From the IMG/VR virus record IMGVR_UViG_3300032024_000157, positions 1-46,941 of that record: a stretch of 46,941 bases of DNA, one strand, 5' to 3'. The DNA is from a virus (Duplodnaviria; Caudoviricetes). Numbering within the stretch: the stretch's first letter is position 1; each line of letters starts with the position of its first letter. The position numbers and the translations under genes were made by a program. Shown here piece after piece: positions 20,380 to 46,434 of this stretch. The notes under the pieces are model-generated. The model did not search any database. It was not told the origin of the DNA and worked only from the letters and a program-made list of their open reading frames with translations.

Positions 20380-23300
20380 ATGACTACTCAAGACCAACAG
20401 ACATATAGTGAATTGATCGATGCTTGGCTGCAACGCCGGCGGAGTGGTGTTATCGAACCGCTGCCAGGCGACACTACACAGAAGTTGACCGACTTTGCCC
20501 AACGGTTTGTAGCCAATCGAGAGACACCCTATCCAGTGGCTGACACGGCCCTCAAGCTGTTAACCGGTCGATTGCCAACGCCACGCACGCCTACGTCCGA
20601 GCCGGAAGTGGGCGCAGTGACCGGAGAGATAGGTCGTGCTGGACTTGGGACAGTTGGCAGTCTAGTCGACCTGGCCGGGCAAGGCGGTCTCGAACCGGAG
20701 TTTGCCCCACGCAGGCTTCAAGAAGCAGTGACCTCTACACCTGTACAACCCAGTTTTGAGGCGGTTGGTCAAACCATTGGTCAGGCACTTCCTTCAATTG
20801 CTACAACCGCGCCGTTGTTGCTAACACCAGCCGGTCTACCCTTCGCCGTGGCAAAAGCCTACGGTGAGGCCTATACTCCACAGGCTGACCCGATTGCCGG
20901 TTTCGTTAGTGCTGCTGGCTTGGCAGCCGTTCCGGGTGCCATAGGCGGTGGTGCTCGCACGGCAGAAACGCTGGCCGAACGATTCTTGTTGCCCTCAGTC
21001 AACCGGATAGTAAAAGAAGGCGCTCCGGCAGTGGTTGAAGGTTTGCAGACAGCAGTCAACCCAACAACTCATAGCTTGTTGGCCGGCAGTCGTTTAGCCG
21101 GTGCTGTTGCTGCTGGTACGGCCGTGCCACAAGCACAACGCCAGGTTGACTCTTTGTTGCGGACTGGAGAAACAGCTCCCTTGTCTGGCGAAGACCTCGT
21201 CACCGACTTAGGGTTAAACCTCGCCTTTGCCGCACCGATTGCCAGGGCGGCTTTAAGTCCGCGTGGCAGGCCTGTCACACGCGGTGCTGACGGTCAGCCA
21301 ATCTTTAGTGAACAAGCCGCACCGCTTGTAGCCGAAACGATGGACCGTGCCTACAGGGCGCAGACCATCCGCAACGCACAGGCCGAAAAGACGGCTCAAT
21401 ACGAAGCAAGTCGAGGCCGACGCATTGCCGACACTCACCAAGAAATCTTTCAAGCCGCAGAACGCGGCGGCGACCCGACCGAAGCTATTGGTCGGTTAAA
21501 AGCACACTGGGAAGAGGCAAGACAGACAACCGATCCTGTGCGCGGGCTGGCCGTGTTGAAAGCTATTTCTGACGAAGGCAATGTGTCCGGTATTCCAGAC
21601 GACGCGTTTCATCGCATCGTAGCCGGCGTGCAGGGACGCTATGCCGACCACTTTAAGAACGATCCAACGTTGCCCGGTCCGGAAACTGTCAACACACTTG
21701 TTGAACGAGGACTTCTTCCACGTATCACAAAGGACTGGATCAGTCAAAACTTTGCTGAGGCGACCGATCAACTTCTTGGTGACTATGAAGGCGCAAAAAC
21801 AAACTTGGTAAATCGAATTGCTGCTCACTATGAAGAACGGCTCCCCGGTGCGTTGGCAGCTATGCGTGCCCAACCGCCCGAGGAAGCGCTTACGAAGACT
21901 ACGATGGGTCAGATGACTGACAGCGCAAAAGACGCGCAGTACATGGACTCACTCATTCGTCTCTATCCGCACCTAAAAGACGCCAAAGTGATTGGTGGTG
22001 GCACTGACGAGAAAGGTAACCTGGTAGACTCTTCATTGCTGCACGCACTTTACAAACGTGACGAAGTTGTCTCCGCTCCCATGTTTGATGTTGCCGGTCC
22101 GTTCCGTACTGGAAACAAGGCCAATTATGACGCGTGGAGAGACGCAGTTGTGCAAGTGGCCAGCACGTATGACCCTGTCACTCGACGCGGTCTATATCAG
22201 AAAACCGCAAACGGCAAGCCCGAACCTTTGTCTTTTGAAGACATGGTTGCCAAGAAAGACGGCAAGTACGTCTTCAAGCCTCGCGTTATTCGTGAAGTTG
22301 ACCGACCTGGTGCATCCGAAGCCGTGCGTGACGCCATTGAGTTTGTAGACAACATTCAACGACGTCAACCAGAAGACGAAATGAGCATAGAAGAGTTGAA
22401 CGCGCAAGTTTTCGAAACGCCTAGTCAGGTGCCAGCAGACTTAGGTGTGCGTAGGACAGGACGTATCGAAACGCCGGAAGCCGAAATTCTGGCTGACGCC
22501 GTCGACCAGGGCGTCGACCCGAAGAATTTTGAAAAGTATCTAGGAGACGTACGGGACTTCGAGCAACCGGCTCTTGGTCTTGACGCACCACATCCACCGG
22601 CCACGCTTTATGACATCGGTCTTCACTTAATGTCTAAAGTCTCCAAAGGCAACTCTGAGGAGTTGTATGCTAAGTACGGTGCGAAGTATTTTGGTCAACA
22701 AGACAAAGACTCCAAGAAGCCCGAACTGTTCAGGCGGTGGTTGCTGGCGCGACTGGAGTCTGAAATCGGACAACAGGGCAGCACTAAGAGTGCGCTAGGT
22801 GCAGAGCGTCAAGACGTTCATCAAATTACTAAGGCCCAACAAGAGTTCTACGCTGCGTGGCGGAACGTTGCCAACGCAAAACGCTTGCGTGACGGTAAGG
22901 AACCAATTGCTGAACCGGTAACCTTTGCTGAAAAACGAGAACAGTACCGTCACGCCCTTCGACTCTATGCCGGCACTCGTGGCAATGTTGACATGAAGCA
23001 GTTGTTTATTGACCTTCTTGATGACAACAAGACCTATAGGAATTTCTTACAAAGGACGGCCGGGCAGGTACAAAAGAGTCAGGTCGAGCCGTCGAAAGAC
23101 CGTGTCGAATACGACCGCCTTCAACAAGCCATGAAAGACCTGGGCTATGATAAGGCCGGCACGCCGGAGTTCAACAAGCTATGGCAACAAAGTGAAGACA
23201 TCAAGAACCGTCACGGCGGAATGCCACCACAAGAAACCACCAAGGCAGTTGTTTCTACACAGGACAGTGGAACAGACATTGAGCACACCTTTGCCGGTTT

Positions 23301-26300
23301 TACCAACCCGACTTTTGACGCGCTGCGGGTCGGAGAAGCGTTCGGTCTGCGTCTTGGACTTGATCCAACTACGGCTGCCGAACTTGGTAACCTCACGGCC
23401 AAGTTTGTTCAAGCCTTTCCTGAAATTGTTGGTTTTGGGGAAGTACGTTCTAACGAAGAGGGACTGCTTGGTCTGCACGTCAGTAATTCTGTAGCTCTTC
23501 AAGGACCAGTCGCTCTTGTTAATCTTGACACTATCGACGCTCGTCAACATGGACCGCTTCAAAAGATTGCTAGTTTCTTGATGGTTACTGCACACGAGCT
23601 TGGTCATGTTGACGTGACAACACCTGGTGCCTATCGTCAACAACGCGCTGACTCGAAAAAACTTGTCAAGGCCATGTTTACAGAAATTGGACGTGACAGC
23701 ACAATTGATTTGTTGCAAAATATCGAACAGGTCGTTTTGCCGCCGCAATTTCGTCCACGTGCACAAGCCTCTCTTGCTGACCAAGGATCAGGTTTTGAAG
23801 AAGAGGCGTTTTCGCGCATGCTGGAATACGCAATGCTTGGTGCGATGACAAAAGACAATCCGTGGTCTGGGAAGGTTGGTGGCAAGACAGACTCGTTTGG
23901 TGCTGCCATGAACTTTCTTCCTGACGAATTTCAAGCCGCAATGCACTTAGCTTTTCGTGACCTTTCAAACGTTATTGGTGCCGTCACAAACTACTACGCT
24001 TCTCGTCCACAACAACCGAAAGATAACTTCATAGTCAACACTCTGCAAGTTATAATGGACAATATTAATGCATACATCAATGTCAACGCTGTCAAGCTTG
24101 CTCAGTTTCGAACGGTAGTCGACCGTCAACGCGCCTTGTTTAGTGCCGCAAGTAGCGTTAATCTTGAAGATCCTGTCATGGTACGGACGGTGTTAGACAT
24201 GGACGAAGCGGCATCGAAAGACGTGACAGGTACTCATCAAGCTATTAGTCCTGACACACACGAAGCGGTCCAAATGGCACAAGTTGCGATGTTTGGCGGA
24301 AAGCAGGACAAGCTAGTGCTGGCTCATGAACGAGCACTGGGCACGCAAGTGCCACGCTGGTCGCATTGGGTGGCCCTTAGTTATCAAACGATGCTCCGTT
24401 TTCACAAAGAGGGCAATCCACTTGCCGAGACGGTTATGTACAAACTCAACGACCTTGAAAAAGCCTATTTTCGACTCAGTCGTCAAATGCACGACCCCTT
24501 TATGGTGACCGACGAGAAGGGCCGGCTCAAGTATGATCCACAACATCCATTGCTGCGTATCCTTCAACGTTCAGACCCAGCCGCCTCGCGTGCTCGTACT
24601 GTTCTTTCTGACCTAACACGTTGGGCCAACGAGACCGGCAAGCCAGTCGTCGAAAATGGACAACTAACTCCCGAAGCCCCTGAGAGTTTGCGTCAGAAAC
24701 TGACCTCGTTCAAGCCGGAAGATCAGCAAGGTATTTTGGCGGGCATTGACAGTCTTCTAAAAGGCACTAAAGAAGCGGCGACAGTTTTGTTTAATGACCG
24801 AGTAGAGTCATCTGCTGCACGTATTGGTGCAGTGCTTATGTCAGTAGACAAAACAATGTTTGCTGACAAGGTTTTTGGACAGGGTAAGCAGATTGTCGAA
24901 ACGAGCGTGGTGTTGCACAACGCCAAGACCGCACTAACACAAGCACAGAAGGAACCGACGCTGATGGCCGAGCTTCCTGCCGCACAACAGCGATTTGCAG
25001 CGGCACAACAAGCGTTCAATCAATCATTCGTTGGTCTACAAGGAGAGCAAATATCGGCCGTGCAGACCTATCTCTTTGGTAAGGACGGCATGGCGGCAGA
25101 GTTGTCGGCTCTTGACGCTTTCTTTAAGGAACGCGAAGGCTGGTTTACTACTGAATCACGGCCCGGCAGGTACTTTATTCAGTCTCATAAGCCAGACAAC
25201 GGCGGCGCCCACTATACTTCCGCATCCAACCTTCGTTTAGCAAAACAAGTGCAACAACGACTGGCTACAGCCGGCCACACCGGCATTCTTGCTACCGATC
25301 GTCAACGTCCCAATACGGACAATTTAATTGATGCTCCGGACGCTGTTATTCAGGCGTTTGTCAACAAAGAATCGGCGGCTTGGAAAAGCGTTCGGGACGC
25401 GATGGAGGCCCACCTATCACCGGAAGACCTTAAATGGATTGACGAGTTGGGGTATGTCCCCGGTGTAGAGGTGCAAAAAGGCATGGAGACCAAGTCGATC
25501 AAACGTTACATGCAACAGCGTGAGTTAACATCTGGTCGTGAAGAGCTTGATATGGTCGATGCGTTTACTGACTATACCGGCCGTGTAGCAGGCAGCGTAG
25601 CTCGACGCGGGCTAACACGTGAGTTGTCTCTTTTGATGCAAGACCCTCGGTTACGGAACGAAGGAGAGTTCAAGACGGTCGTTAAGACCATGCAGGACAC
25701 ATTGCTTCAACCCTTGAACAACGGACTACAAACAGTACGTGCCGGACTGACCGCACGCTATCTCGGCTTGCCTAACTTTGTTGGCCCGGTAATCGAGGTT
25801 ATGCAAAGCGCACAGGGCGTGCTGCCTTATTTTATCCAACAAGTTGGATTTGTAAAAGGCGTAGACACATTTCGAAACGCCTTGGTTAGTCCGGCTGTTA
25901 TTAAACTTAAACGCGGTGGTCTAGACTATCGTCGCATTATTACAAGTGCCAAGGAAAAAGAGAGTGTTGACCCGCGAGCTATGACCAAGCAAGAGGCAAC
26001 GTATCTTTACTACGAACGACAACAATCAGAGGGTGGTTTTAAGGCCGGACCTGTATATGCGTCGGGCTTTTCGCGCAACCACCAAATTTTGGAACAGGCG
26101 GCGTTTGGATTGGGCGCTTCCAAACCCAAACCAGTGGAGCAACAAGTTGGTGACCCGCTTTACTGGTTGGCACAAATGTCCATGTCGATTTACAGCACCG
26201 CGTCCGACTACAACACACGGGTTGCCTTTCTTGGTGCGCTCGACACGCTTTATGATCGTGGCGTGCGAGGCGTAGAACTTTACCAAGGCGCATCGGCTTA

Positions 26301-27537
26301 CCAAAACCTTTACACACATGGTGGCGGCAAAGCTAACACGGTTGGATATATTAACAAAATATCAAACCCGCTGACCCGTTCTGCCTGGGGCCTTACTGAA
26401 ACCATGCAACGCTATATGTTTGGCAACCTGACCATGCAGAAGGACATGTTTGACGAGATGATTGGGCGGGTTGAAGAGGCGACACCACGGCAAAAGAAGA
26501 ACGCAGCTGAGGCGTTTGCAACGGCACAGTTTGTTCAACTTCTTTTGGCCGGCGCAATGGGACTGACTGGTGTTGGCATTACGGCGGCCGTTACGCAGAA
26601 GTTGACAGGAAAAGACCCCAAGCAAGCGTTACGCCAGTTTTGGCAAGACCTGGTCAAGCGGCTTGGTGCTGACGAACCAACAGCAGTTTTACTGGCTAAC
26701 TACGCGCAGAACGGCATGCTCTCTACATCTCTTGGCGTGGACGTTTCTAATCGTGTCACCATGAACTCCTTCTTTGGGTTCAACGAATATGATGGTTTCA
26801 ACACGAACGAACTGACTGGTGTGGTCGGTTCTAGTATTGAAGACCTTTGGATGGCCGGTAAGTATGTTGCTCAAGGCAATTTAACAAAAGCCGGCCGCCA
26901 ATTGGCCAGTCCTTCAATGCGGCCCGCAATAGACCTGGCCGTTTCAAAACGTGACTATGGAGATTTTGCTCTTCGTGACCAAGGCAGCAACAAAATTACC
27001 GACCTGACGACGACAGAAGCCGCCAAGGCTGCTATCGGTCTCAAACCTTATCGGTATCGTCTTCTTCGTGACGCTAAGCAGGCTGAACAACTAAGCAACA
27101 AACAGTTTCAAACCACTAATGACCAAACGCTTGACAATCTGAGCCGTGAAATGCTTAAGGGAAACACGCAGGCTACAATGAACTATATTGCACAGCTGCG
27201 TGCTAAGGATTCTTTACAGTTGCCACAACCAATTGTTAGGTCAATCATTGACCGAGCCGTCGCTGCAAGTCAACCACAAGACGTGTTGGCGTCTGGACCG
27301 GTCGGCAACGCGCCGCAACAACGCGCCATTGCTGAGTCGTTCGGTGCGATTCCACGTCAATCAGAAATAGAAAACCTACGTCTACGAACTCAACTCAACG
27401 CCAAGACCGGCTTCATGGGTGGTCCTCCGCCGACGGGAAAGGAGATTGAACGGGCTGGGTTGATTGATGCCCTGGTTCAACAGCGTGGGATGACTCGAGC
27501 GGAGGCGGCACGGCTGGTGGGACTAATGGGGTATTAG
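20380..27537 (+). CDS. giant internal virion / ejection protein (2385 aa) with HExxH motif
   Basis: Last gene of the structural operon; mostly helical; TAHELGH zincin-like motif at 23593-23607. Confidence 0.7.
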   Translation: MTTQDQQTYSELIDAWLQRRRSGVIEPLPGDTTQKLTDFAQRFVANRETPYPVADTALKLLTGRLPTPRTPTSEPEVGAVTGEIGRAGLGTVGSLVDLAGQGGLEPEFAPRRLQEAVTSTPVQPSFEAVGQTIGQALPSIATTAPLLLTPAGLPFAVAKAYGEAYTPQADPIAGFVSAAGLAAVPGAIGGGARTAETLAERFLLPSVNRIVKEGAPAVVEGLQTAVNPTTHSLLAGSRLAGAVAAGTAVPQAQRQVDSLLRTGETAPLSGEDLVTDLGLNLAFAAPIARAALSPRGRPVTRGADGQPIFSEQAAPLVAETMDRAYRAQTIRNAQAEKTAQYEASRGRRIADTHQEIFQAAERGGDPTEAIGRLKAHWEEARQTTDPVRGLAVLKAISDEGNVSGIPDDAFHRIVAGVQGRYADHFKNDPTLPGPETVNTLVERGLLPRITKDWISQNFAEATDQLLGDYEGAKTNLVNRIAAHYEERLPGALAAMRAQPPEEALTKTTMGQMTDSAKDAQYMDSLIRLYPHLKDAKVIGGGTDEKGNLVDSSLLHALYKRDEVVSAPMFDVAGPFRTGNKANYDAWRDAVVQVASTYDPVTRRGLYQKTANGKPEPLSFEDMVAKKDGKYVFKPRVIREVDRPGASEAVRDAIEFVDNIQRRQPEDEMSIEELNAQVFETPSQVPADLGVRRTGRIETPEAEILADAVDQGVDPKNFEKYLGDVRDFEQPALGLDAPHPPATLYDIGLHLMSKVSKGNSEELYAKYGAKYFGQQDKDSKKPELFRRWLLARLESEIGQQGSTKSALGAERQDVHQITKAQQEFYAAWRNVANAKRLRDGKEPIAEPVTFAEKREQYRHALRLYAGTRGNVDMKQLFIDLLDDNKTYRNFLQRTAGQVQKSQVEPSKDRVEYDRLQQAMKDLGYDKAGTPEFNKLWQQSEDIKNRHGGMPPQETTKAVVSTQDSGTDIEHTFAGFTNPTFDALRVGEAFGLRLGLDPTTAAELGNLTAKFVQAFPEIVGFGEVRSNEEGLLGLHVSNSVALQGPVALVNLDTIDARQHGPLQKIASFLMVTAHELGHVDVTTPGAYRQQRADSKKLVKAMFTEIGRDSTIDLLQNIEQVVLPPQFRPRAQASLADQGSGFEEEAFSRMLEYAMLGAMTKDNPWSGKVGGKTDSFGAAMNFLPDEFQAAMHLAFRDLSNVIGAVTNYYASRPQQPKDNFIVNTLQVIMDNINAYINVNAVKLAQFRTVVDRQRALFSAASSVNLEDPVMVRTVLDMDEAASKDVTGTHQAISPDTHEAVQMAQVAMFGGKQDKLVLAHERALGTQVPRWSHWVALSYQTMLRFHKEGNPLAETVMYKLNDLEKAYFRLSRQMHDPFMVTDEKGRLKYDPQHPLLRILQRSDPAASRARTVLSDLTRWANETGKPVVENGQLTPEAPESLRQKLTSFKPEDQQGILAGIDSLLKGTKEAATVLFNDRVESSAARIGAVLMSVDKTMFADKVFGQGKQIVETSVVLHNAKTALTQAQKEPTLMAELPAAQQRFAAAQQAFNQSFVGLQGEQISAVQTYLFGKDGMAAELSALDAFFKEREGWFTTESRPGRYFIQSHKPDNGGAHYTSASNLRLAKQVQQRLATAGHTGILATDRQRPNTDNLIDAPDAVIQAFVNKESAAWKSVRDAMEAHLSPEDLKWIDELGYVPGVEVQKGMETKSIKRYMQQRELTSGREELDMVDAFTDYTGRVAGSVARRGLTRELSLLMQDPRLRNEGEFKTVVKTMQDTLLQPLNNGLQTVRAGLTARYLGLPNFVGPVIEVMQSAQGVLPYFIQQVGFVKGVDTFRNALVSPAVIKLKRGGLDYRRIITSAKEKESVDPRAMTKQEATYLYYERQQSEGGFKAGPVYASGFSRNHQILEQAAFGLGASKPKPVEQQVGDPLYWLAQMSMSIYSTASDYNTRVAFLGALDTLYDRGVRGVELYQGASAYQNLYTHGGGKANTVGYINKISNPLTRSAWGLTETMQRYMFGNLTMQKDMFDEMIGRVEEATPRQKKNAAEAFATAQFVQLLLAGAMGLTGVGITAAVTQKLTGKDPKQALRQFWQDLVKRLGADEPTAVLLANYAQNGMLSTSLGVDVSNRVTMNSFFGFNEYDGFNTNELTGVVGSSIEDLWMAGKYVAQGNLTKAGRQLASPSMRPAIDLAVSKRDYGDFALRDQGSNKITDLTTTEAAKAAIGLKPYRYRLLRDAKQAEQLSNKQFQTTNDQTLDNLSREMLKGNTQATMNYIAQLRAKDSLQLPQPIVRSIIDRAVAASQPQDVLASGPVGNAPQQRAIAESFGAIPRQSEIENLRLRTQLNAKTGFMGGPPPTGKEIERAGLIDALVQQRGMTRAEAARLVGLMGY

Positions 27538-40678: not shown

Positions 40679-40852
40679 TTATTGGCCAGCAACATCGACG
40701 AGCGTTTCTTCCGCCGTGCAGTGGCCGTCCGATTGCACGTTGCCCTCGTGCCATGTCGCGCCGCCGTCGAGCGAGTATTCGCACGCCCAGTCGCCCCAGT
40801 TACAGTCGTCGATGAGGTCCACGAGTTCCGTGAGGTGTATCTTCGGTTTCAT
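40679..40852 (-). CDS. 57-aa hypothetical protein absent from the ORF track
   Basis: My translation MKPKIHLTELVDLIDDCNWGDWACEYSLDGGATWHEGNVQSDGHCTAEETLVDVAGQ; ATGA overlap with the upstream stop. Confidence 0.6.
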   Translation of the reverse strand: MKPKIHLTELVDLIDDCNWGDWACEYSLDGGATWHEGNVQSDGHCTAEETLVDVAGQ

Positions 40853-41100
40853 AGCACGGTGATCAGAGCTTCGGCGGTGCCGTCGGCGTCATCATCTACA
40901 TAGCTGAGTTCACTGTAGCCTCTTAGACTGTAGCCGATGAGCTGCGCGAATTGCCGACGGTCGTCTGCCGTGAAGTCCATCACGGCGATTTTGCTCATGT
41001 CGATTCCGCCGCTGTCGAACAGGTGGCGGACAATGGCGTTTTCCTTAAAGCAGAGGACGCCCGATTTGTTTCTTTCGAATGGTTGGGTTGGGTGTTTCAT
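40849..41100 (-). CDS. cassette-borne hypothetical protein (83 aa)
   Basis: FKENAIVRHL...DRRQFAQLIGYSLRGYSELSY, a pattern I associate with a common small phage family. Confidence 0.8.
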   Translation of the reverse strand: MKHPTQPFERNKSGVLCFKENAIVRHLFDSGGIDMSKIAVMDFTADDRRQFAQLIGYSLRGYSELSYVDDDADGTAEALITVL

Positions 41101-41114
41101 GTTGGAAATTCAGA

Positions 41115-41174
41115 GGTTAACCAGTGCGATACAGACAACGTCATTCATGGCGTGGCTGATCGGGAACGTTCGGC
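41115..41174 (+). repeat. attC-like site 1 (60 bp)
   Basis: GGTTAAC CAGTGC GAT A CAGACA A CG TCA TTCA TGG CG TGGCTG ATC GGGAAC GTTCGGC. Confidence 0.8.
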
Positions 41175-41398
41175 AGATAAGAAATATCTCCATCGCGCTC
41201 CATGCCTTTTACAAGAGAAACGAATGTTTTGCGCTTGGCGGGAATCCACGGCTTGCCCGTGCGCTGGTCGGAATACCAAGCGACTGGTCTGCCTTTGTGG
41301 GTGCAGGTGCCGTCCGAGTAGAGTAGCCAGTCGAGGTAGTCGTAAAGAGCCGAACCTATCGCCCCAGCCAACGTGCGGGGATGTTCCGTGGTTTTCAT
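41141..41398 (-). CDS. cassette-borne hypothetical protein (85 aa)
   Basis: Starts inside site 2 and stops inside site 1 (...PNVPDQPRHE). Confidence 0.7.
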   Translation of the reverse strand: MKTTEHPRTLAGAIGSALYDYLDWLLYSDGTCTHKGRPVAWYSDQRTGKPWIPAKRKTFVSLVKGMERDGDISYLPNVPDQPRHE

Positions 41399-41461
41399 AT
41401 TTTAGGTGCGCTCAACATCGGGGGCTATTCGCCCGCACGCGGCTGAGCTTTATCGTTCGGG
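41349..41461 (+). repeat. attC-like site 2 (113 bp)
   Basis: GCCGAAC CTATC GCC C CAGCCA A CG TGCGGG ... CCCGCA CG CGGCTG AGC TTTATC GTTCGGG. Confidence 0.85.
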
Positions 41462-41823
41462 GAGATGCGACCGTGCTTGGCGAGCACATCGAGGCCGCAG
41501 TGTTCATAAAAGATTTTGCCGCACTTGGCGCAGGGCCATTGCACGCGCTGCGTGTGCGACGGGTGGTTGCCACACACTACCTCATCCGCCCATTTCTGGC
41601 AGTCCTTCCACGATGCGCCGCGAGGCGGTTCAGGCGGGATGGGAATGTTGGTCAGCGATTGGTCGCCCAGTCGGAACTCATGGCGGCAGGTGGACATCCT
41701 GAATCCCCGAACAAATCCCCGGAGCCAACGACGCGCAGCCGACCGGATGCGGTAGCTTCTCAGTCTGCGCCGCATCTTGGGGTGCATCGTGTAGGCGGGA
41801 GTAATCGGCGCGTCGTTGCTCAT
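41425..41823 (-). CDS. cassette-borne Cys-rich hypothetical protein
   Basis: CRHEF...WPCAKCGK...EHCG; starts inside site 3 and stops inside site 2 (...PNDKAQPRAGE). Confidence 0.7.
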   Translation of the reverse strand: MSNDAPITPAYTMHPKMRRRLRSYRIRSAARRWLRGFVRGFRMSTCRHEFRLGDQSLTNIPIPPEPPRGASWKDCQKWADEVVCGNHPSHTQRVQWPCAKCGKIFYEHCGLDVLAKHGRISPNDKAQPRAGE

Positions 41824-41837
41824 CTCAGGAGTTCTAC
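41706..41837 (+). repeat. attC-like site 3 (132 bp)
   Basis: CCCGAAC AAATC CCC G GAGCCA A CG ACGCG ... CGCGT CG TTGCTC ATC TCAGGA GTTCTAC. Confidence 0.85.
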
Positions 41838-42175
41838 CTACTGACGCTCACTTCCGCTTCGGGGTTTTCTTCGCAGGCGTGAAGATATTTCTCCAGCCAC
41901 GGCAAGAAGTTCTCGTAGAGCCCCCAGCCGTTCGGGCTGTTGTGCTTCTCGAATCGCACCGGGTCGGCCTTCATTTGCGCGATTCCGTTGCGCAGTGGCT
42001 CGATGAGTTGTGCGGCTTTCGTGATGCCGATTTCTTCGGGCCTCCAGCACGCCTCATAGATTCCAGCCTCTTCGGCCATCGCTCCGAGATTGTGCGTGAT
42101 GTTTTGCCCGAAGAGTTCTTGAGTGTGTCCGCACGTCGGGCACTGCGGTTTTGTGAGATATACGTCTAGGCTCAT
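41834..42175 (-). CDS. cassette-borne hypothetical protein (113 aa)
   Basis: MSLDVYL...NITHNLGAMAEEAGIY...NGWGLY, a pattern I associate with a widespread small phage family. Confidence 0.8.
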   Translation of the reverse strand: MSLDVYLTKPQCPTCGHTQELFGQNITHNLGAMAEEAGIYEACWRPEEIGITKAAQLIEPLRNGIAQMKADPVRFEKHNSPNGWGLYENFLPWLEKYLHACEENPEAEVSVSR

Positions 42176-42180
42176 GGTGT

Positions 42181-42621
42181 TTAAGAAAAGGTAGAACCAG
42201 TTGGTCCAGACAACGGCGCGCAAGCGCCGTGTCTGACCGCCGCGTTCGCCTCGGCCCCACGCTGCGAACGTAGGTGGGTCAGGAACTCGGCGGCCTTCGC
42301 TCGTGTTTCCTCCTCCGTCCAGCCTGCGGCTTTGTTGTAGAGGAAGTCGAAGTCCTCATTGAAAGGGTCTTCACTGAGCACGAAGTCCAGTGTATCCCCG
42401 GACACATGGCTGGGGTGGATGTAGAAGTTCACGTCTCCGGTAAGATGGCTGACATGTGCCGCGAGCGAGAAGTGAGTCACGCCAGCAGTGATCATCCGGC
42501 GCATATAGTGCGCCAGGCTTTCACTCTTGGGCCGAGGAGAACCAGCAGTCACAGCAGCAACGCCCGTTGCTGGGCCTTGCGATTCGGTAGGGGCGTCTCC
42601 GCCCGTGGATTGAGTTGTCAT
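42181..42621 (-). CDS. cassette-borne hypothetical protein (146 aa)
   Basis: ATG at 42621 inside site 5; reads through all of site 4 (...ANAAVRHGACAPLSGPTGSTFS). Confidence 0.7.
   Translation of the reverse strand: MTTQSTGGDAPTESQGPATGVAAVTAGSPRPKSESLAHYMRRMITAGVTHFSLAAHVSHLTGDVNFYIHPSHVSGDTLDFVLSEDPFNEDFDFLYNKAAGWTEEETRAKAAEFLTHLRSQRGAEANAAVRHGACAPLSGPTGSTFS
42191..42250 (+). repeat. attC-like site 4 (60 bp, textbook geometry)
   Basis: GTAGAAC CAGTT GGT C CAGACA A CG GCGC GCAA GCGC CG TGTCTG ACC GCCGC GTTCGCC; unpaired C and A on the top strand give extrahelical G and T on the bottom strand. Confidence 0.9.
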
Positions 42622-42674
42622 GGGAAGGGTTTTAGCTGCGCTCGGCCGGGCGTGGCTGACCTGCGTCGTTCTCT
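42536..42674 (+). repeat. attC-like site 5 (139 bp)
   Basis: GGAGAAC CAGCA GTC A CAGCAG CAA CGCCCG ... CGGGCG TGGCTG ACC TGCGTC GTTCTCT; left arm slightly irregular. Confidence 0.75.
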
Positions 42675-42955
42675 TCCGGCCAAGCGGTAGGCGCGGATTT
42701 AGCGTGCCGGCGAAGCTCGGCGGCACAGTGCATGGTGACTTGGTGGCCTCGGTAGTGCTCCACTTCATCGAGCACGTCGCCGCTTTTGCGGAAGCCCGCC
42801 ATCTTGGATTTCAGCCCGGCCGCGAGTTCTTCCAAGACCTCTTGCACGCGTTTCTCAAACAAATCCGGGGCGTGGATGGCGGTGTTTGCCCTGACCTCAT
42901 CACCCAACCGAATAACAACCCTGTCTAATATGGCCTCAAATTCCTCTGCCGTCAT
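42632..42955 (-). pseudogene. probable chimera: N-terminal fragment of a restriction endonuclease fused to an unrelated C-terminus
   Basis: ATGA-coupled to the C5 methyltransferase; MTAEEFEAIL...FEKRVQEVL resembles a type II REase start but no PD-(D/E)XK core follows; ends inside site 5. Confidence 0.45.
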
Positions 42956-43950
42956 ATCAGACAGTCTCTCACTGCCTTCGCGATATGCCAAGCCAAGACC
43001 GGGGGCACGGCGTTCCCAACCTGGCGCTCCGTTTCCCGCAATCCGCCGCTGAATATGAAGTTGTCGGGGAATGACTGGATTCTAGCCGCCTCGCGCATAG
43101 AGATGCGGCGGGGCAGGCGATAATGGAATTGAATGTTGCCGTGGCATTCAGCCCGCATGGTGTCGGCCGGTCTCTCTGCCTTGAGTATCCGGCTTCCTTG
43201 TTCGCTGCTCTTTTCGGCCCGGCTCCAAATATGGTTAATGGCCGGATTTTCCGCCACTTCGGCCAAGTCTTCGAGAGCCTGCTTTGAAGTGACCCATGAC
43301 TCACGTTTCAGAGTGGGCACCGGAGGCTGGAATTTCTTGGTCTTTCCCTTGGTCCCTACGATGAAGACGCGCTCGCGCATTTGCGGCACGCCGTAGTCAG
43401 CGGCCAAATACACCTGAGCGGAGACCGCGTAGCCCAAGCTCCTAAACGCAGCCATGATTTCCTCATAGAAATCCTTGTTCATCGGCATGAGAAGCCCCTT
43501 GACGTTCTCGGCCACAAAAACACGAGGCTCCGTCCGGCGAATGGTTTCGATCATTGCCTTGTAGAGATTGGTCCTAACGCCCTCAGAACCCTTGAGGATG
43601 CCGTTGATCGACACGTCCTGACACGGAAAACCGCCGATGACTACATCGGCGGTTTTAGGTAGCGCGGACAGAACCTCCCAGATGTCGTCACAATTTATTT
43701 TGTGCCCGAAATTGGCCTCATAGGTCTTGCATGCCGCCGGCTTGATGTCGTTCGCCCAATCAATGCGATAGGGAAGCCGGTCATAGGTCTTTCCCAGAAA
43801 CTTGAAACCCCCAAGGAACCCCATGTCCAAGCCTCCGCAGCCGGAGAAAAGCGATACCACAGAAAATTCTTTGGGAATTTTCTTCCGGACCATTTGCGCC
43901 ATCACCTGCCCGAAAGTCGCGGGCAGCGGTTCGATAATCATTTTCGTCAT
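42952..43950 (-). CDS. dcm: DNA (cytosine-5) methyltransferase
   Basis: Motifs I SLFSGCGG, IV GGFPCQD, VI ENVKG, VIII QMRERVF, IX REAARIQSFP, X VGNAVP. Confidence 0.95.
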   Translation of the reverse strand: MTKMIIEPLPATFGQVMAQMVRKKIPKEFSVVSLFSGCGGLDMGFLGGFKFLGKTYDRLPYRIDWANDIKPAACKTYEANFGHKINCDDIWEVLSALPKTADVVIGGFPCQDVSINGILKGSEGVRTNLYKAMIETIRRTEPRVFVAENVKGLLMPMNKDFYEEIMAAFRSLGYAVSAQVYLAADYGVPQMRERVFIVGTKGKTKKFQPPVPTLKRESWVTSKQALEDLAEVAENPAINHIWSRAEKSSEQGSRILKAERPADTMRAECHGNIQFHYRLPRRISMREAARIQSFPDNFIFSGGLRETERQVGNAVPPVLAWHIAKAVRDCLI

Positions 43951-44018
43951 TGGGTGAGTTTCTTGAGGTCTGCAGATTTTCGGGTTGATTGCATTCATTC
44001 GGGGCGGTTACTCCGCGG

Positions 44019-44562: not shown

Positions 44563-44610
44563 ACTGCACACTGTGCAGTTGCTTGCAAGAATAAAGTTGC
44601 ACAATGTGCA
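44563..44610. promoter_or_regulatory. two TGCACA-N-TGTGCA palindromes (putative operators) between divergent genes
   Basis: ACTGCACA C TGTGCAGT at 44563-44579 and TGCACA A TGTGCA at 44598-44610 in an AT-richer gap. Confidence 0.65.
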
Positions 44611-44631: not shown

Positions 44632-44826
44632 ATGCACTTCGGAGAGGCATTGAAGCCGTGGTCAGCCACGCGAATAGCCCTGACGCTCGGTTGTCCCGAG
44701 AGAACGGTTTACGCGTGGAAGATGAACGAGCGGCTCCCTCCAGAATGGGTCCAGCGCCTCGTGCTGGAGAGACTGAAGCGCATAAAGCCCGACCATGCTG
44801 AACCTCCCCGGCCTGAACGTAGTTAA
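44632..44826 (+). CDS. small HTH (Cro/Xre-like) protein
   Basis: SATRIALTLGCPERTVYAWK...RLPPEW. Confidence 0.7.
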   Translation: MHFGEALKPWSATRIALTLGCPERTVYAWKMNERLPPEWVQRLVLERLKRIKPDHAEPPRPERS

Positions 44827-45073
44827 CGTAGCCGACCGCCAAGGAGACTATCTCCTTGAGGCCAACGTCAATCAGGAGGTGCCGGTGTGCGAATGCGCCG
44901 ACCCGCACGTGGTGGCCAACGGCCGTAAGCCGCAGGAGTTCGTCGATACCCCGATGCACGGCAAGCGGGTGGACATCGTGGTGAAGCGGCAGCGCTACAA
45001 GTGTCAGGGCTGCGGGCGCACCTACTACGCGGACATCCCGAACATGCACAGCAAGCACCGCATGACCCAGCGC
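44795..45073 (+). pseudogene. truncated ISL3-family transposase (zinc-finger N-terminus only)
   Basis: MLNLPGL...CEC...DTPMHGKRVDIVVKRQRYKCQGCGRTY...HRMTQR; similarity stops there and no DDE domain follows. Confidence 0.8.
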
Positions 45074-45078
45074 AGGCG

Positions 45079-45140
45079 GCCGAACCTGACTTCTGTTTGG
45101 CGGTGCTCATTTCCCGAGTGGCTGATGCGGATTGTTCGGG
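45079..45140 (+). repeat. degenerate attC-like site 6
   Basis: GCCGAAC ... GAG TGGCTG ATG CGGATT GTTCGGG; right arm has the same layout as sites 1 and 5, left arm does not pair. Confidence 0.5.
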
Positions 45141-46161: not shown

Positions 46162-46434
46162 GTAGAAGATTAACAGCCAGCCAAGGTTGTCGCATTGTGG
46201 TCAGGCGGACGTGCTTCCCGGAGGTTGCACTGGAAGGAGAGCCTGTATTCCCTGCTACTTGGCTGGCTGTAAAGTTTGGTCGCACTGGGCTGCTATCTTC
46301 TGCGAATCGCGGGTGCGGTGGCACCACTTTAGGGCCGGAGGACCGAAGCCCTTCCGGCCCCATAGTGTAGGTCAGGAACTGAAAGCGACTTAATTGGCTG
46401 CGCGGATTAGGCCGTCTAGGTTGGGTGGCGGGGC

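Follow-up and report, generated by a model that had tools for sequence, protein, structure and literature searches.

Short genes lined up between inverted boxes in a phage genome raise the question of whether they are integron cassettes, each placed there by site-specific integration. Integrons are known as bacterial devices. The stretch analysed here (the window) is the whole of virus record IMGVR_UViG_3300032024_000157, a phage of 46,941 bases that is 98% complete; an ORF scan of it (n = 44) matched terminase, portal, major head protein, DNA polymerase, primase, ligase, a Sak4-like protein and an exonuclease. Most genes to the right of 27.4 kb lie on the - strand, and the array sits in the early region. 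A sequence-only reading had taken the matches between its boxes as the footprint of real integration events.

All eight boxes are where that reading had placed them, and the six 9-mers among them are unique in the window. Since the first pair's 7-mers, GTTCGGC and GCCGAAC, recur 6 and 5 times elsewhere in the window, this pair is weak when taken alone. The array comprises five attC-type sites on the + strand (AAC..GTT; Table 1). Sites A-D are found at scores of 22-32 by an attC scanner that combines position weights with pairing in the L box and the stem and was refined by iteration from six seed sites, and site E is missed; shuffled copies of 1.6 Mb gave no hit of at least 16, and another scan gave 1 hit in 950 kb of shuffled sequence. 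The attC geometry (unpaired bases at 16 and 23-24, a 6-bp stem and 5-6-nt spacers) fits sites D and B, and nearly fits A. Site D has a 6-bp stem between unpaired bases at positions 16 and 23, which is the arrangement of unpaired positions and intervening stem described in the accessible text of PMC5027507, and all five site lengths are within the attC range of 57-141 bp given there. In site B a C in L'' and an A further on are unpaired, the bottom strand having G and T there, and the unpaired base of L'' in site A is A instead of C on the top strand. The strict RYYYAAC / GTTRRRY consensus is not matched, as R' reads GTTC in all five sites; Verrucomicrobiia host sites also often have GTTCGGC, so that this mismatch does not set the sites apart from host attC. 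R'' contains AAC and R' contains GTT, complementary in the circular form. With five sites in 1.56 kb and no integron integrase, the array falls under the definition of a CALIN.

Table 1. Positions of the array, its genes and the surrounding island in the window
Feature	Position	Strand	Remarks
Cassette unit B	41169..41455		287 bp
Cassette unit C	41456..41831		376 bp
Cassette unit D	41832..42244		413 bp
Cassette unit E	42245..42668		424 bp
attC-type site A	41115..41174	+	60 bp; AAC..GTT 41119..41168; R''-L'' spacer 6 nt; scanner score 27
attC-type site B	41349..41461	+	113 bp; AAC..GTT 41353..41455; scanner score 32
attC-type site C	41706..41837	+	132 bp; AAC..GTT 41710..41831; L box pairs 4/7, degenerate; scanner score 22.5
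attC-type site D	42191..42250	+	60 bp; AAC..GTT 42195..42244; canonical; L box 7/7; circle-form z -5.9
attC-type site E	42536..42674	+	139 bp; AAC..GTT 42540..42668; left arm with 2 additional bases, right half intact; missed by scanner
83-aa ORF belonging with site A	40849..41100	-	52% homologues in two viral loci
85-aa ORF (unit B)	41141..41398	-	start in site B loop, stop inside site A; no family
90-aa Cys/His-rich ORF (unit C)	41425..41697	-	stop inside site B; no family above cut-off
113-aa gene D	41834..42175	-	PHROG 4019 (unknown function); 7772 homologues
146-aa ORF (unit E)	42181..42621	-	start in site E loop; no family
107-aa ORF	42632..42955	-	N-terminus similar to the gene that follows a related methyltransferase in a Verrucomicrobiia genome (30%, E 1e-5)
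DNA cytosine-5 methyltransferase	42952..43998	-	inside the array's island
ISL3 transposase N-terminal fragment	44795..45078	+	same island
Possible right half of a sixth attC site	45107..45140	+	GTT at 45134; left half absent; under half-site threshold

Integrated integron cassettes show an R'/R'' offset between adjacent sites. The window does the same: as had been noticed from the letters, each R' pairs best with the R'' of the next site, at 15/16 positions after GTT as against 7/16 for its own R'' (4 bases each), and over 6 bases the counts are 21/24 and 7/24. On the other side, R'(B) matches its own R'' at 3/4, and R'(E) fits its own R'' at 5/6 over 6 bases, as well as R'(D) does. The fourth pair (D to E), noted before as 8/9, is longer than that, at 13/14. 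Since the offset is the unique best of the 120 possible R'/R'' assignments (p = 1/120), it is exceedingly improbable that the boxes are chance inverted matches or intergenic terminator-like hairpins, for which the frequency of the first pair's 7-mers could be adduced; the empty scan of the 1.6 Mb of shuffled copies, the chance-level number of terminator-like sites (9 found, 9.3 expected) and a set of 56 phage units, in which offset pairing beats own pairing in 46 and loses in 1, argue likewise. In host integron arrays the offset reaches 4/4 in 17/18 units and own pairing in 1/18, so such an offset is what any integron array normally shows and is unsurprising by itself.

Each unit begins with the TT of one R', closes with the G of the R' that follows and carries the attC upstream of its gene, and the unit lengths proposed earlier are correct. 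The left crossover of a unit A is unrecognisable, its left end being lost; a candidate end at 40739 (7/9) was not accepted, since a match of this quality would arise by chance and this one falls within an ORF. The R box forms by pairing of R' with R'', according to the integron literature consulted, and the circular form had been said to restore a matched attC. Circularisation and folding in silico bear this out for units B, C and D, and not for E: on going from the linear to the circular form, the bottom-strand fold changes from -20.0 to -22.5 kcal/mol in B, from -25.9 to -33.8 in C and from -19.2 to -23.1 in D, and is -23.8 in both forms of E. The outer 9 pairs of C and D gain in mean pairing probability, from about 0.2 to 0.98. 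In B, C and E it is the top strand that has the slightly better fold (by 0.8-5.1 kcal/mol), so free energy alone lends no support to a bottom-strand preference. A joint of excision at any G|TT was absent from the contigs of three runs, two of them possibly the source, a result that is uninformative either way.

The unusual feature of the locus, absent from the finding of the sequence-only reading, is the reversal of the genes. The scanner assigns the top strand to +, and all four unit ORFs are on - with the attC upstream, whereas a canonical cassette has its gene on the top strand followed by the attC. In Verrucomicrobiia chromosomal integrons, the same scanner places the longest ORF on the top strand in 21/21 intervals. 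Across a larger pool, made of units of 100-900 bp with at least 3/4 offset matches from 25 phage-type loci and 44 host regions, the longest ORF is on the attC bottom strand in 53/58 phage units versus 23/96 host units (Fisher p 4e-17), the other 73/96 host units having it on the top strand. The phage set excludes duplicates (L004, L012, L244, L268) and MAG contigs (L097, L107); having been collected by way of a single phage gene and a single integrase clade, it does not represent a random sample. The longest-ORF rule is also noisy, as 16/53 Planctomycetia host units were scored bottom. Reversed units often start inside their own attC, in its loop (29 of 50 bottom-strand units), and, unlike host units, stop inside the attC of the neighbour (32/50).

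Such a layout could also be obtained by reading the array with the opposite handedness, - being the true top strand, so that each gene would travel with its downstream hairpin and cross over at the other box. On - the genes do begin after a GTT box and end at an AAC box, like ordinary cassettes, the offset match alone fits both readings, and the slightly better top-strand folds at three sites point the same way. Against this, the polarity of the unpaired bases is the same as that found in host integrons with the same scanner, the first unit of phage integrons starts at an attI-like G|TT and has its hairpin at the far end, and the block conserved among relatives of gene D includes the upstream hairpin and not the downstream one, by which the opposite handedness is largely refuted; we regard it as highly improbable.

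Nearly as hard to sustain is the proposal that the units are ordinary host cassettes, captured out of a chromosomal integron, that either were turned round by top-strand recombination or are of a rare antisense kind, which we judge very unlikely. Top-strand recombination does invert cassettes, according to the accessible text of PMC5027507, the attC type resembles Verrucomicrobiia sites, and host units scored bottom do occur at the frequency given above. Inversion, however, turns gene and attC together and does not turn a gene against its own attC. The cargo is also of phage type: gene D belongs to PHROG 4019, a family mostly without attC, and 10/46 cassette proteins match PHROGs, with Lar-like, Mom-like and methyltransferase genes in other arrays. 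ORF E was not found in the 401 Verrucomicrobiia genomes searched, in a search run without a positive control.

The genes and sites are interlocked in the window. ORFs B, C and E end in or past the neighbouring site, and ORF E reads through all of site D, ending 6 bp before gene D. With a start at 41823, which falls within the L' box of site C, the ORF of unit C has 132 aa. The last codon and the stop codon of gene D form the R' box. Relatives were sparse. Viral matches of the unit E ORF in two loci are an 18-residue chance match in an unrelated frame without attC and were rejected, the junction pattern of unit C matched 0/407 loci, and a blastn search with the array as query returned a single 83-base hit among 50,697 annotated phages. 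The searches made yielded no informative relatives of units B, C and E, and only the gene D family is traceable.

The D family is where movement becomes visible. Homologues kept in one fixed order would have counted against integration; instead, relatives of the gene of the 413-bp unit lie between different neighbours, with identity ending at G|TT. Three loci (L003, L157, L159) are 82-87% identical over the gene and its upstream attC, and their flanks differ. In two of the three pairs identity begins at the left G|TT and stops at most 7 bases from the right G|TT; in the third it begins 14 bases ahead of the left one, within a site type common to both loci, and stops inside the attC. The left flank of L159 is not an attC. 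Movement with breakpoints at G|TT is thereby seen for relatives of unit D only; the gene D of the window itself has 83% DNA identity to the L157 gene, ending at the gene, and the ends are unshared. An inverted GTT..AAC pair of at least 8 nt surrounds the gene in 19/171 distinct D-family loci versus 1.35 expected by shuffling. This count is independent of the attC scanner, and the 19 loci include several site types; since the scanner misses Bacteroidota-type sites such as L226, its own count of 7/202 is a lower bound and has been replaced. Most D loci are without such a pair, e.g. L002. In ten loci with D-family genes flanked by matched GTT..AAC pairs (L226, L031, L032, L037, L043, L051, L056, L073, L091, L092) the hairpins are AT-rich and of another type, and L091 and L092 are in Bacteroidetes MAGs.

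The same family bears on how a cassette originates, because its genes are also attC-free in most phages and the states before and after can be compared. Members of PHROG 4019 are mostly attC-free and appear to have been boxed with unrelated attC types in several lineages. Between gene D of the window and L003/L157 the genes are about 83% identical; the two sides have different crossover points, R boxes and attC sites, and the boxes stand at different distances from the stop codon. On both sides R'' is complementary to the Arg and stop codons with which the gene itself ends. A tentative and on balance unlikely explanation is that phages build their own cassettes back to front from ordinary phage genes, R'' being written from the end of the gene by copying on a single-stranded circle. 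Among units with a perfect R box, the match in phages extends beyond the 7-bp box: at positions 5-9 after GTT it is 2.54/5 in 48 phage units (permutation p < 0.0002), 1.31/5 in 42 Verrucomicrobiia units (p 0.76; mostly from two genomes) and 1.79/5 in 47 Planctomycetia units (p 0.008). Compared per locus, the phage match exceeds that of hosts (p 0.013). The Planctomycetia excess weakens the view of this match as phage-only, and we describe it as stronger in phages without being exclusive to them. The excess would be explained if a single-stranded hairpin were copied on itself; selection for a stable stem or a younger age would account for it as well. In a quick, weakly supported tree of the D family, 5 cassette-borne rows of 139 account for 2 label changes. 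If R'' is indeed copied from the end of the gene, the question of cassette genesis becomes testable.

The window genome offers no enzyme for the reaction: PF00589 gave 0 tyrosine recombinase candidates at E 1, tblastn with the IntI-like integrase of the contig G002 found nothing under E 0.09, and no attI was found. A promoter scan was at chance level (2 found, 3.2 expected), and a Pc promoter on the attI side would read the cassette genes of the window antisense. Two further complete array-bearing phages are likewise without PF00589. Thus intI and attI do not occur together in the window, and they do so in viral relatives. G002, a 61-kb viral contig, has an IntI-like integrase gene (L156:1189-2172) that starts about 33 bp from a G|TT matching the first R'' at 10/10. 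Its best match is TIGR02249 (223.7 bits, under the cut-off of 265, versus 87 for XerC), and R131, K156, H256, R259, H282 and Y291, which we take to be the catalytic set of tyrosine recombinases, are invariant in 36/36 aligned rows together with a patch at 184-208, presumably the IntI-specific insertion.

The G002 integrase heads a group of at least 120 proteins with 54-91% identity. Among 80 viral recombinase loci gathered with the alignment of this group, 29 have a site, and in 28/29 its top strand is opposite to the integrase, the canonical polarity; sedentary host integrons and integrase-bearing viral relatives have the same intI-attI-attC polarity. An attI-like crossover lies 19-77 bp from the integrase start in 14/27 tested and matches the first R'' by 4-7 bases. 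In the viral contigs G002 (L156:1189-2172), L236-L269 and L280, IntI-like integrases occur with an attI-like crossover and reversed cassettes, and in the closest group the crossover is 31-35 bp before the start codon. Complete phage integrons with the reversed layout exist among relatives. In a quick integrase tree of 86 rows (3 duplicates dropped), virus-rich groups that are 16/16 and 11/12 viral separate from 45 host proteins, and 3 viral rows fall among hosts. The viral nature of the integrase-bearing records is taken from IMG/VR, and for G002 also from Bet-like and nuclease neighbours; terminase was found in 1/5, all records being incomplete. A chromosomal IntI-like gene, L368 (G297:C1), groups with the viral integrases; it is possibly in a prophage, and the scanner finds no site there.

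An integrase could also have come from the host. IntI is above the cut-off in 92/301 Verrucomicrobiia genomes, which makes supply in trans plausible. Verrucomicrobiia attC and the window sites are alike at 22-27 of 32 positions, and the methyltransferase of the window has a 59% match in 1/401 genomes; from this site likeness and this match only, we infer a Verrucomicrobiia-type host for the phage.

Taken together, the units are most probably genuine cassettes that belong to a phage-side variant of the integron in which the genes are reversed. It is likely that they entered as circles at G|TT through an IntI-family integrase which the window genome lacks and which may have been supplied by the host, a co-infecting phage or an ancestral phage. 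Reversal of the genes would allow the leftward early transcript of the phage to express the cargo. In three of the four ORFs the adjacent attC appears to supply both the C-terminal tail and the stop codon, and reshuffling would change these tails. The footprint proposed by the sequence-only reading is thus upheld as regards integron-type cassettes, the crossover at G|TT and moving relatives (the family of unit D). That support does not extend to events, past or continuing, in this phage itself, which is without integrase and attI, has degenerate C and E, and has lost the left end of unit A.

These same defects give weight to the possibility that the array is a fossil, built by IntI in another phage or prophage and then block-copied here through homologous or illegitimate recombination, with its shuffling now at an end. 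Its anatomy would be the same as in the preferred explanation, and only the place and time of integration differ. We give this history somewhat less than an even chance. The array occupies an accessory island missing from 6/6 distant relatives: among 37 exonuclease-bearing loci, 6 have homologues of both array-flanking early genes, which are about 0.4-2.5 kb apart and site-free between versus 5.3 kb in the window, the exonucleases being 25-46% identical and the scanner missing some site types. Closer relatives of the phage, with an exonuclease 82-86% identical, occur on contigs of 45-47 kb (P0243, P0244). Alongside the array, the island carries an ISL3 fragment and a methyltransferase whose partner is truncated, a content that favours at least some block transfer and decay; the absence of a G|TT joint from all contigs of the three runs is in line with such a history. 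The 107-aa ORF, which runs into site E, is likely the truncated restriction-enzyme partner of the methyltransferase, to judge from its resemblance to the gene in the Verrucomicrobiia genome. On the other hand, the end matches are near intact (9/9, 9/9 and 13/14) and D is fully canonical. Moreover, phage attC without a resident integrase were recombined by IntI1 in 5/6 tests, according to the accessible parts of PMC9892861. The array is likely partly decayed, B and D being the best candidates for sites that may still recombine.

The accessible parts of the same report (Qi et al. 2023, PMC9892861) describe 17 phage CALINs and 3 complete integrons, so phage CALINs are already published. The likeness to the window lies in an attC cluster without an integrase, in a phage of about 47-49 kb, with a DNA methyltransferase nearby, and the sites, of a kind shared with the window, were recombined by IntI1 at G|TT in the assay reported there. 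In its accessible parts, that report describes no genes reversed against their attC, attC-internal starts or virus-rich IntI clades, unlike what is seen here. TJE1, the only one of its phages that we rescanned, is canonical by the present scan, with 2 sites whose top strand is + and annotated genes on +. A search for papers on the reversed layout found none; most subscription journals and bioRxiv supplements were outside it. Verrucomicrobiia and Planctomycetia sedentary integrons share the attC type and the offset rule with the window, and differ from it in their top-strand genes. Insertion by IntI at secondary sites (attG), described in the accessible text of 10.1101/2022.09.11.507474, offers cassettes a route into a genome without attI; in that text it concerns ordinary cassettes in bacterial genomes, unlike the reversed units of phages. 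Anti-phage defence cargo in integrons is the subject of recent preprints, as their titles indicate. If the preferred explanation is true, host or phage integrases acting on a mirror-built phage pool of counter-defence-type cargo would equip phages with the same means of modular gene swapping, the window being one partly decayed example of a reversed array.

Several further features of the window were recorded. The stop of the methyltransferase overlaps the start of the partner fragment (42632-43998), and an intact-looking pair occurs in G149 (L428). The ISL3 fragment runs into the possible right half of an attC (44795-45140). Rfam gave 0 matches in the window, and the 227-aa early gene, used as a single-protein viral query, gave none. 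A virion-region protein of 2385 aa (20380-27537) is without a PHROG match. At the contig end (46840-46941) a poly-G tail is likely a sequencing artefact. An inverted repeat of 16 nt at 46170-46273, unscored as attC, is 94% complementary, has arms 72 nt apart and starts with TTAAC. At 44564-44598, both source-like runs are shorter by 33 bases, with 6 bases that fit either side.
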